From the NCBI RefSeq assembly GCF_048403405.1, contig NZ_CP183129.1: a stretch of DNA of 64,000 nt; one strand, written 5' to 3'. This DNA comes from Escherichia coli (lineage in GTDB: Bacteria; Pseudomonadota; Gammaproteobacteria; Enterobacterales; Enterobacteriaceae). Each line of letters opens with the position of its first letter. Position 1 is the stretch's first letter. Below are positions 1,444-15,735 of the stretch, in pieces. Position numbers and translations under genes: made by a program. Below the pieces are notes generated by a model. The model had not been told where the DNA came from. It did not search any database and was given only the letters and a program-made list of their open reading frames with translations.

Positions 1444-2604
1444 TCAGGTTGGATCAACAGGCACTACGTTCTCACTTGGGTAACAGCCCAATACCTTCAT
1501 CGAACGGGTGATGTCCCCTAACTCTTTCAATGCTTTTTGCATTTCCGCTGATTCAAGATTGGCCTGAATATCCAGATAAAACATCTCTTCCCATGGATTA
1601 CCGTGAATCGGGCGTGACTCCAGACGGGTCATAATCAGATTGTGGTTGCGCAGTACCAGCAACGCTTCAACCAGCGCACCAGCTTGTTGCCCGGTCGCCA
1701 TTAACAACGTCGTTTTCGCTGGAACCTGGTCAGACACGTTAATGGCTTTACGTGCCAACACCACAAATCGGGTGAAGTTTTGTCGCTGATTCGCTTCAAT
1801 ACGCTCCAGTACCTGCAAACCGTACAAAGTGCCGCCAGCTTCGCTTCCCAACGCAGCAACATGCGGTGATTTTACCTGTGCAACCTTTTCCATTGCCGCA
1901 GACGTACTTTCGGTATATTCAATCTTCCAGTGCGGATAACGATTAAGGAATTTGCTGCATTGCTGGAATGGCTGCGGATGGCTGTAGACCGTATTGATGG
2001 TGGATAAATCAGTAGTGCCGGAGACCAACAAACAATGGTCGATAGTTAACGTCATCTCGCCAACAATCGACAAACTGGTATGTTGCAGCAGATCGTAAAC
2101 GTCATTTATGGCACCGGAGCTGGTATTTTCAATCGGTACGACGGCATAGTCGGCCTGGCCGGTTTCCACCTGATTAAAAATATCGGCAAATTTGGCGCAG
2201 CCACTTTCAATGAATTGCTCAAAGTGACGGGCAGCATACTGGCGCGCCGCAAGATGGGAATAAGAACCTTTGGGGCCGAGAAAAGCGATGCGTGCTGAGT
2301 GCGGATTAATTTTATTGAGATGTTGCTGGAGCAAAGCCTGCTGAGTTAATACGGAATCTTCAATGATGAGCTGGAACAGGCGAGTAATGTAATGGGCGTC
2401 CAGATGGTGCGCTTTACCGAGCGTAATTAATCTTTCCAGTAAATCGCGTTCACGATCAATATCACGTACCTGGCGATGCGAGAGCAGTTTGGCTTTTCCC
2501 ACCTCGACGGCCAGTTCGCGCCGCTCTGCCAGTAATGCTAATAATTTTTCATCCAGCGCGCTGATTTTCTCTCGCAGCGCCAGTAATGGATTTTCCGATG
2601 TCAT
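1444..2604 (-). CDS. pheA: Bifunctional chorismate mutase / prephenate dehydratase (P-protein), 386 aa
   Basis: ORF 1444..2604 minus; translation; preceded upstream by pheL leader and attenuator. Confidence 0.93.
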
Positions 2605-2623: not shown

Positions 2624-2659
2624 CAATAAAAAAGGCCCCCCGATTTGGGAGGCCTTATT
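2624..2659 (-). promoter_or_regulatory. pheA attenuator terminator hairpin (AGGCCTCCC...GGGGGGCCT followed by U-run) between pheL and pheA
   Basis: GC-rich inverted repeat with T-run on the minus strand, placed between leader peptide ORF and pheA start. Confidence 0.7.
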
Positions 2660-2702
2660 GTTCGTCTTCGCATTCTGTTTCACACGACGAAACGCCTCCC
2701 AT

Positions 2703-2750
2703 TCAGGGGAAGGTAAAAAAGAATGCGAAGAAAAACGGTGTGTGTTTCAT
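2703..2750 (-). CDS. pheL: pheA leader peptide, 15 aa, [15 protein letters not shown] (7 Phe codons)
   Basis: Minus-strand ATGAAACACACACCGTTTTTCTTCGCATTCTTTTTTACCTTCCCCTGA read directly; too short for the ORF track. Confidence 0.85.
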   Translation of the reverse strand: [15 protein letters not shown]

Positions 2751-2804
2751 GTTTGTTTCCTTAAGTGACTTCAGTACAGTACCCGTACTGTTTTCACGCT
2801 GTCA

Positions 2805-2830
2805 ACAAAAAACGCGCCCGAAGGCGCGTT
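2805..2830 (-). terminator. Intrinsic terminator downstream of raiA (hairpin CGCGCCCGAAGGCGCG plus U-run on minus-strand transcript)
   Basis: Inverted repeat flanked by A-run on plus strand immediately 3' of raiA stop. Confidence 0.6.
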
Positions 2831-2853: not shown

Positions 2854-3249
<396 letters not shown>

Positions 3250-6046: not shown

Positions 6047-6108
6047 CCTAAAGAATCAAGACGATCCGGTACGCGTGATTTTCTTTTCACATTAATCTGG
6101 TCAATAAC

Positions 6109-6136
6109 CTTGAATAATTGAGGGATGACCTCATTT
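6109..6136 (+). promoter_or_regulatory. Candidate sigma-32 heat-shock promoter of clpB (-35 CTTGAA, -10-like GACCTCATTTA)
   Basis: Match to sigma-32 consensus CTTGAAA / CCCCATnT upstream of clpB; clpB is a known heat-shock gene. Confidence 0.5.
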
Positions 6137-6175
6137 AATCTCCAGTAGCAACTTTGATCCGTTATGGGAGGAGTT

Positions 6176-8749
6176 ATGCGTCTGGATCGTCTTACTAATA
6201 AATTCCAGCTTGCTCTTGCCGATGCCCAATCACTTGCACTCGGGCACGACAACCAATTCATCGAACCACTTCATTTAATGAGCGCCCTGCTGAATCAGGA
6301 AGGGGGTTCGGTTAGTCCTTTATTAACATCCGCTGGCATTAATGCTGGCCAGTTGCGCACAGATATCAATCAGGCATTAAATCGTTTACCGCAGGTTGAA
6401 GGTACTGGTGGTGATGTCCAGCCATCACAGGATCTGGTGCGCGTTCTTAATCTTTGCGACAAGCTGGCGCAAAAACGTGGTGATAACTTTATCTCGTCAG
6501 AACTGTTCGTTCTGGCGGCACTTGAGTCTCGCGGCACGCTGGCCGACATCCTGAAAGCAGCAGGGGCGACCACCGCCAACATTACTCAAGCGATTGAACA
6601 AATGCGTGGAGGTGAAAGCGTGAACGATCAAGGTGCTGAAGACCAACGTCAGGCTTTGAAAAAATATACCATCGACCTTACCGAACGAGCCGAACAAGGC
6701 AAACTTGATCCGGTGATTGGTCGTGATGAAGAAATTCGCCGTACCATTCAGGTACTGCAACGTCGTACTAAAAATAACCCGGTACTGATTGGTGAACCAG
6801 GCGTCGGTAAAACTGCCATCGTTGAAGGTCTGGCGCAGCGTATTATCAACGGCGAAGTGCCGGAAGGGTTGAAAGGCCGCCGCGTACTGGCGCTGGATAT
6901 GGGCGCGCTGGTGGCTGGGGCGAAATATCGCGGTGAGTTTGAAGAACGTTTAAAAGGCGTGCTTAACGATCTTGCCAAACAGGAAGGCAACGTCATCCTG
7001 TTTATCGACGAATTACATACCATGGTCGGCGCGGGTAAAGCCGATGGCGCAATGGACGCCGGAAACATGCTGAAACCGGCGCTGGCGCGTGGTGAATTGC
7101 ACTGCGTAGGTGCCACGACGCTTGACGAATATCGCCAGTACATCGAAAAAGATGCTGCGCTGGAACGTCGTTTCCAGAAAGTGTTTGTTGCCGAGCCTTC
7201 TGTTGAAGACACCATTGCTATTCTGCGTGGCTTAAAAGAACGTTACGAACTGCACCACCATGTGCAAATTACTGACCCGGCAATTGTTGCAGCGGCGACG
7301 TTGTCTCATCGCTACATTGCTGACCGTCAGCTGCCGGATAAAGCCATCGACCTGATCGATGAAGCAGCATCCAGCATTCGTATGCAGATTGACTCAAAAC
7401 CAGAAGAACTCGACCGACTCGATCGTCGTATCATCCAGCTCAAACTGGAACAACAGGCGTTAATGAAAGAGTCTGATGAAGCCAGTAAAAAACGCCTGGA
7501 TATGCTCAACGAAGAACTGAGCGACAAAGAACGTCAGTACTCCGAGTTAGAAGAAGAGTGGAAAGCAGAGAAAGCATCGCTTTCTGGTACACAGACCATT
7601 AAAGCGGAACTGGAACAGGCGAAAATCGCTATTGAACAGGCTCGCCGTGTGGGTGACCTGGCGCGGATGTCTGAACTGCAATACGGCAAAATCCCGGAAC
7701 TGGAAAAGCAACTGGAAGCCGCAACGCAGCTCGAAGGCAAAACTATGCGTCTGTTGCGTAATAAAGTGACCGACGCCGAAATTGCTGAAGTGCTGGCGCG
7801 TTGGACGGGGATTCCGGTTTCTCGCATGATGGAAAGCGAGCGCGAAAAACTGCTGCGTATGGAGCAAGAGCTGCACCATCGCGTTATTGGTCAGAACGAA
7901 GCGGTTGATGCGGTATCTAACGCTATTCGTCGTAGCCGTGCGGGGCTGGCGGATCCAAATCGCCCGATTGGTTCATTCCTGTTCCTCGGCCCAACGGGTG
8001 TGGGGAAAACTGAGCTTTGTAAGGCGCTGGCGAACTTTATGTTTGATAGCGACGAGGCGATGGTCCGTATCGATATGTCCGAGTTTATGGAGAAACATTC
8101 GGTGTCTCGTCTGGTTGGTGCGCCTCCGGGATATGTTGGTTATGAAGAAGGTGGCTACCTGACCGAAGCTGTGCGTCGTCGTCCGTATTCCGTTATCCTG
8201 CTGGATGAAGTGGAAAAAGCGCATCCGGATGTCTTCAACATTCTGTTGCAGGTACTGGATGATGGGCGTCTGACTGACGGGCAGGGGAGAACGGTCGACT
8301 TCCGTAATACGGTTGTCATTATGACCTCTAACCTCGGTTCCGATTTGATTCAGGAACGCTTCGGTGAACTGGATTATGCGCACATGAAAGAGCTGGTGCT
8401 CGGTGTGGTAAGCCATAACTTCCGTCCGGAATTCATTAACCGTATTGATGAAGTGGTGGTCTTCCATCCGCTGGGTGAACAGCACATTGCCTCGATTGCG
8501 CAGATTCAGTTGAAACGTCTGTACAAACGTCTGGAAGAACGTGGTTATGAAATCCACATTTCTGACGAGGCGCTGAAACTGCTGAGCGAGAACGGTTACG
8601 ATCCGGTCTATGGCGCACGTCCTCTGAAACGTGCAATTCAGCAGCAGATTGAAAACCCGCTGGCACAGCAAATACTGTCTGGTGAATTGGTTCCGGGTAA
8701 AGTGATTCGCCTGGAAGTTAATGAAGACCGGATTGTCGCCGTCCAGTAA
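6176..8749 (+). CDS. clpB: Disaggregase chaperone ClpB (Hsp100, two AAA+ modules), 857 aa
   Basis: ORF track 6164..8749; start moved to ATG 6176 ([10 protein letters not shown]) with GGGAGGAG SD upstream; two Walker A motifs GEPGVGKT and GPTGVGKT. Confidence 0.95.
6606..6622 (+). other. Internal translation start inside clpB (SD-like GGAGGTGA then GTG codon 149) producing N-terminally truncated ClpB
   Basis: In-frame GTG at 6620..6622 preceded by GGAGGTGA; internal start at Val149 is established for E. coli ClpB. Confidence 0.6.
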
Positions 8750-14279: not shown

Positions 14280-14803
14280 TGAACTGCACCCCAAATGTTG
14301 GACATAATCTGACATCTGAAGGTGCAGTTTATGAAACATTCATTTGAAGTAAAACTTGCCGCTGTAAATCATTACCTGGCTGGTCATGCAGGCATCATTT
14401 CTACGGCAAAACTCTTTCAACTTTCTCACACCAGCCTCTCACACTGGATTAATCTTTTTCTTCTTCACGGTCCTCGGGCACTGGATTGCAGACACAGGCG
14501 TAGCTATTCTCCTGAAGATAAACTTTGCGTGGTTCTTTATGCTCTCGGGCATTCTGAGTCTCTACCCCGGGTAGCTGCCCGGTTTAACATTCCCAGCCAC
14601 AACACGGTTAAAAACTGGATAAAAGGCTACCGCAAATCTGGTAATGAGGCCTTTATCAGGCGCAGGAAGGAGAAATGCATGACCCGTTCTGATGATACCC
14701 ATGAAAACGAGGCAAACATGACGCCGGAAGAGATGAAGAATGAGCTGCGTTATCTTCGCGCAGAAAATGCATATCTGAAAGCCATGCAGGAGCATCTCCT
14801 GGA

Positions 14804-14809
14804 AAAAAA

Positions 14810-14810
<1 letters not shown>
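14804..14810 (+). other. Programmed -1 ribosomal frameshift heptamer A_AAA_AAG in the orfA zero frame
   Basis: Heptamer read directly in phase; the -1 frame is open from 14810 onward into orfB. Confidence 0.7.

Positions 14811-15735
<925 letters not shown>

Follow-up and report, generated by a model that had tools for sequence, protein, structure and literature searches.

A common and apparently neutral Thr/Ile polymorphism at codon 4 of the pheL leader peptide in the phenylalanine attenuator of Escherichia coli

The genome of Escherichia coli GCF_048403405.1 (contig NZ_CP183129.1) harbours a pheL leader peptide gene that differs at one residue from that of strain K-12, with ACA (Thr) instead of ATA (Ile) at codon 4. 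The question raised by this locus is whether the difference sets the strain apart, or changes the control of pheA. A sequence-only reading of the stretch of 64,000 nucleotides analysed here, hereafter the window, had regarded the difference as a minor strain marker with attenuation preserved. We are very confident that the window carries an ordinary E. coli pheL-pheA attenuator with the commonest natural leader allele (Thr4). The coordinates of the features are given in Table 1.

Table 1. Features of the pheL-pheA region, with positions in the window.
Feature	Position	Strand	Basis
pheA (chorismate mutase/prephenate dehydratase), gene under control of the leader	1444..2604	minus	ORF list; RefSeq annotation of MS 69-1
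Intrinsic terminator (attenuator), 10-bp stem AAGGCCTCCC/GGGGGGCCTT and T-run	2626..2656	minus	terminator scan, folds, Rfam
Phe leader RNA, ribosome-mediated transcription attenuator	2626..2751	minus	Rfam RF01859; fold z = -5.2
Predicted antiterminator, consuming both terminator arms	~2636..2710	minus	masked constrained folds, in silico
Protector/pause stem ("1:2" pairing), Phe-codon region with downstream sequence	2660..2736	minus	MFE and Rfam structures
pheL leader-peptide ORF	2703..2750	minus	translation; pheL WP_001386991.1 annotation in MS 69-1
pheL codon 4, ACA (Thr) in the window, ATA (Ile) in K-12	2739..2741, variant base 2740	minus	K-12 alignment
Second K-12 difference, G in the window, A in K-12	2772	minus	alignments
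pheL-pheA promoter, -35 TTGACA (2805..2800), probable weak -10 TACTGT (2781..2776), 18-nt spacer	2776..2805	minus	read from the sequence

Translation of the pheL ORF gives 15 codons followed by a TGA stop, including seven Phe codons at positions 6-8, 10-12, and 14, and its 3′ end, ACC TTC CCC TGA, corresponds to the ending UUC_CCC_UGA. The sequence-only reading had placed the leader correctly, as the minus-strand translation showed, and had left the strand unstated. A plus-strand reading of the same 48 nucleotides was rejected, since its translation gives nothing meaningful. The Rfam family Phe_leader (RF01859) matched the region with 132.2 bits (gathering score 55, E = 1.9e-24), and the match to the covariance model was full length, with model positions 1-125 of 125 covered and all helices formed. 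Because this match is joined by the RefSeq annotation of pheL in the near-identical strain MS 69-1, pheL is not a chance ORF, and the element is the classical pheL-pheA attenuator. The short ORF with its run of Phe codons lies directly upstream of pheA, which encodes 386 amino acids and starts 98 nt past the pheL stop. Upstream of pheL lies an ORF of 113 amino acids (3195..2854, minus strand), which is raiA according to the annotation of MS 69-1.

The window belongs to the core E. coli chromosome, with the gene order aroF-tyrA-pheA-pheL-raiA-bamD-rluD-yfiH-clpB followed by an rRNA operon, and past it the genes from kgtP onward to ung, and then among others srmB, nadB, lepA, purL, and mltF. The closest strains were MS 69-1, 4621, TUM14771, GN02461, TUM1226, and OX030728, with 99.9-100% identity. 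In MS 69-1 (99.9% identical) pheA, pheL, and raiA are annotated, with tyrA and aroF beyond pheA, and bamD beyond raiA. Two further elements were found in the window. An IS3-family insertion sequence (14322-15679, plus strand) separates kgtP from the 5S rRNA gene of the rRNA operon; this insertion sequence possesses two overlapping ORFs (14322-14852 and 14957-15679), described in the annotation of MS 69-1 as a programmed-frameshift transposase. A match to the RyfD sRNA (Rfam RF02768, 125 bits) was detected at 6057-6195 on the plus strand, where it immediately precedes clpB and overlaps its start, which is a known arrangement.

For the comparison with K-12 MG1655, the region 2736500-2739500 of NC_000913.3 was used, in which pheL (b2598) occupies 2737599-2737646. 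The 311-nt alignment started at the end of raiA, reached into pheA, and contained four differences. Codon 4 is the only one of them within the pheL ORF, as well as within the leader transcript, and its variant base is C on the minus strand and G on the plus strand. The other three are the G vs A at 2772 and the third positions of pheA codons 6 and 7. The window and K-12 do not differ anywhere between pheL codon 5 and the start codon of pheA, a stretch that includes the protector stem, the antiterminator segment, and the terminator with its T-run. The K-12 peptide given in the sequence-only reading agrees with the translation of b2598, and the single-residue difference was confirmed by the alignment, in which the reference has ATA (Ile) and not Thr at codon 4. 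Its two further statements also held: the seven Phe codons are intact by translation and by alignment to K-12, and so is the attenuator hairpin by the Rfam match, the folds, the terminator scan, and the identity to K-12.

An intrinsic terminator is present between pheL and pheA, with a GC-rich stem of 10 bp (2656..2632) followed by TTTTTT. In the Rfam consensus, model positions 1-15 are unpaired, and the variant base falls in this unpaired 5′ part, at position 12. Folding of the 145-nt leader with either the C or the U allele gave the same MFE structure (-51.7 kcal/mol, z ~ -5.2 vs shuffles), which consists of the protector stem (2736..2660) and the terminator (2656..2632), and leaves the variant base unpaired. 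An effect of codon 4 on the RNA structure was thus rejected, as every attenuator pairing is 3′ of the base, and both alleles fold alike.

The regulatory switch was modelled by forcing the RNA covered by the ribosome to remain unpaired, with a crude footprint whose 3′ edge was set 12 nt beyond the first base in the A-site. With the A-site on any of the Phe codons 6-11, the best structure was a long antiterminator (~2710..2636) using both terminator arms, so that in silico, and with this rough footprint, an alternative antiterminator accompanies a stall at the Phe codons. The terminator was kept when the A-site was placed on the stop or on codon 4, 12, or 14. The masked folds are consistent with the classical model, in which scarce Phe-tRNA would stall the ribosome on pheL at the Phe codons, the RNA downstream of the stalled ribosome would form the antiterminator, and RNA polymerase would read into pheA. 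When Phe is plentiful, the ribosome would get to the pheL stop codon, the terminator hairpin with its T-run would form, and transcription would end before pheA. The same folds suggest that a slow codon 4 alone would not cause read-through. Phe-dependent control of pheA transcription in vivo is known for K-12, according to PMC9291695 and PMC3082878. Transcriptional pausing has been described at hisL, trpL, leuL, pheL, and thrL, and for pheL a NusA-sensitive pause tied to a very stable hairpin was shown in vitro (PMC9291695). Such a pause would be expected to resynchronise ribosome and polymerase after a small delay at codon 4.

Allele frequencies were obtained with megablast, using the 48-nt ORF as query against 5,426 complete E. 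coli genomes, where 48/48 identities fall in the ">=99%" band and 47/48 corresponds to 97.9%; the identity-band counts on so short a query take in a few partial alignments, e.g. that of PCN061. The window allele (WP_001386991.1) was found in 3,564 exact copies, and the K-12 allele in 1,392. A third allele, spotted among the 97.9% matches and carrying T13I, accounted for another 428, and the three together represent 5,384 of the 5,414 matched genomes. At least 3,992 of the 5,414 (~74%) thus encode Thr4, and ~26% Ile4. Exact DNA matches to the window allele include O157:H7 and O104:H4 strain HUSEC2011, and WP_001386991.1 is annotated in MS 69-1, BL21(DE3), and ST95-32. Among the matches listed, the exact K-12 allele was carried by MG1655 derivatives, BW25113, and an O89m:H9 strain. 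Neither the window peptide nor that of K-12 was found as a sequence in a full-text search of the literature. The window allele is the commonest natural E. coli version of pheL, and it has no diagnostic value for this strain. The proposal of a minor strain marker was consequently not borne out, as the allele belongs to the E. coli majority, and Thr4 is found in other Escherichia as well.

The distribution of codon 4 beyond E. coli was determined in one genome per GTDB species with the pattern M-K-x-x-P-F-F-F-x-F-F-F-x-F-P-stop, in which codons 3, 4, 9, and 13 were left free. The scan recovered 107 pheL loci among Enterobacterales species representatives; this set lacks representatives of E. coli, E. 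fergusonii, E. marmotae, and Salmonella, although the E. coli pheL fits the pattern, and their absence may reflect a gap in the collection or variant leaders in those genomes. Four Escherichia species other than E. coli were recovered, and in each of them codon 4 is a Thr codon (ACN). Codons 3-4 are CAT ACT in E. albertii, CAA ACG in both E. whittamii and Escherichia sp. E1V33, and CAC ACA, as in the window, in Escherichia sp. MOD1-EC7003. Since all of these outgroups encode Thr4, parsimony indicates that Thr4 (ACA) is most likely ancestral in Escherichia, and that the K-12 ATA is a derived C-to-T transition, with the outgroup sample being these four species and incomplete (no E. fergusonii or Salmonella). 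Recurrent mutation or recombination might also lie behind the codon-4 alleles.

The same 107 representatives indicate how strongly the residue is constrained. Codon 3 encodes 12 residue types and codon 4 eight (L 33, T 26, V 21, F 10, I 9, Q 6, S 1, H 1). In contrast, codon 9 is always Ala and codon 13 always ACC (107/107), despite being equally free in the search pattern. As codons 3 and 4 vary while 9 and 13 do not, the PheL peptide has two unconstrained positions, and residue 4 is one of them. Codons 5-15 of the window pheL are the same as in most of the representatives. This is in agreement with the description by Gurvich et al. (2011, PMC3082878), where the enterobacterial pheL group ending in UUC_CCC_UGA is highly conserved, and variation is placed outside the start and the Phe codons.

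The Thr/Ile difference is best read as a neutral polymorphism, predicted to be without effect on attenuation, since codon 4 precedes the Phe codons, none of the regulatory pairings extends as far 5′ as this codon, and its residue varies freely. This neutrality is deduced from position, variability, and predicted folds, and phenylalanine attenuation by the window leader would be expected to be unchanged relative to K-12.

It is very unlikely that the change at residue 4 is functional, in the sense that it alters the set-point of attenuation, the behaviour of the nascent peptide (+1 frameshifting at UUC_CCC_UGA), or the kinetics of leader translation, so that the control of pheA in this strain differs from that in K-12. 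The nascent PheL peptide does act at the ribosome, where 15% +1 frameshifting at the pheL stop depends on peptide residues; the mutations reported to affect it in the accessible part of PMC3082878, nevertheless, are only those at -1 (Phe), -2 (Thr), and -10 (Pro), and the frameshifting was described there as having no influence on pheA expression in Salmonella. Against a functional role stand also the free variation of residue 4, the position of the base outside all pairings with identical folds, the protector stem that stays closed in the masked fold with the ribosome on codon 4, and the fact that both alleles are common among natural isolates.

The codon used by K-12 offers another argument for a functional difference. 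No Ile codon is rarer in E. coli than ATA, which is read by the minor, lysidine-modified tRNA-Ile2. At codon 4, ATA was absent from all 107 species representatives. A small early kinetic difference in the K-12 leader due to ATA is conceivable. We consider it hardly probable that the derived ATA makes pheA attenuation of the K-12 type slightly unlike that of the ancestral Thr4 type, e.g. through a delayed ribosome start or a sensitivity to the supply of tRNA-Ile2. If true, decades of data on pheA attenuation in K-12 would not be fully representative of E. coli, which would be of modest interest. That the codon-4 difference is an artefact, arising from faulty sequencing or assembly of the window or from a wrong K-12 sequence in the sequence-only reading, has practically no probability and was rejected, as nothing was found in its support, while the K-12 reference reads ATA, the exact 48-nt sequence of the window is present in 3,564 independent complete genomes, and the window peptide has its own RefSeq protein accession.

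Compared with the neutral difference at codon 4, the G at 2772 is a somewhat better lineage marker, because just 685 of 5,425 E. coli genomes (~13%) have the exact 61-mer containing it. Position 2772 is flanked by the promoter and the Shine-Dalgarno sequence, ~22 nt before the pheL ATG, and falls just past the probable -10, close to the site where transcription is expected to start or slightly 5′ of it. E. albertii, E. whittamii, and Escherichia sp. E1V33 also have G at this position, and since these three other Escherichia species share it, the G is probably ancestral too. A consensus promoter scan of 2550-2900 detected no sigma-70-like site, and TACTGT was assigned as the putative -10 from its sequence. 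In view of the negative scan and the weak -10, the promoter call rests on reading of the sequence and on a cloning primer in PMC3082878, whose attenuation construct begins at this TTGACA. The terminator hairpin of raiA (2830..2811, minus strand) was observed next to this promoter, and its T-run continues straight into the -35 of pheL (2805..2800), so that terminator and promoter abut. In K-12, the 3′-UTR of raiA gives the sRNA RaiZ.

The third pheL allele found in E. coli (WP_001700969.1) has ATC instead of ACC at codon 13 (T13I), and was seen in HCP6S3_I1 and NRZ100600. A T-to-A change 3 nt past the stop accompanies this allele. The protector stem is kept in this allele via a G-U pair, with an MFE of -50.6 vs -51.7. 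T13I hits the -2 position, one of those affecting +1 frameshifting according to PMC3082878, and codon 13 is ACC in 107/107 representatives. A consequence is more likely for T13I than for the I4T difference.

Taken together, the Thr4 allele of pheL is a known, annotated, and apparently neutral polymorphism in a textbook attenuator, and nothing novel. The emphasis of the comparison should be reversed, with K-12 carrying the minority, most likely derived allele, and the window the majority allele of ancestral type. K-12 does not represent the consensus of E. coli, as codon 4 of pheL illustrates, and otherwise the difference matters very little.

Among the known systems, the leader of the window is closest to the annotated pheA operon leader peptide PheL, WP_001386991.1, with an identical peptide and no difference at the protein level. 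BL21(DE3) encodes the same Thr4 peptide as the window, while its leader RNA has the T-to-A change after the stop, and the 3′ arm of its terminator is one G short (GGGGG instead of GGGGGG). The pheL of K-12 (b2598, NP_417089.1) has in common with the window the locus raiA-pheL-pheA-tyrA, the length, the seven Phe codons, the stop context, and the sequences of the pause stem, antiterminator, and terminator; it differs by Ile (ATA) at residue 4, and by A at the equivalent of 2772, where the window has G. Relative to Rfam RF01859 there is no notable difference, as the variant base is located at a weakly conserved, unpaired model position. Similarly, the window shares the ending and the conserved nucleotide sequence of the pheL group ending in UUC_CCC_UGA, without differences from it as described by Gurvich et al. 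(2011, PMC3082878). The trpL, hisL, leuL, and thrL attenuators are built like pheL, in that a small ORF with many copies of the regulatory codon is combined with a pause/protector hairpin and with RNA that can fold into either an antiterminator or a terminator, but they respond to another regulatory amino acid and their sequences are unrelated.
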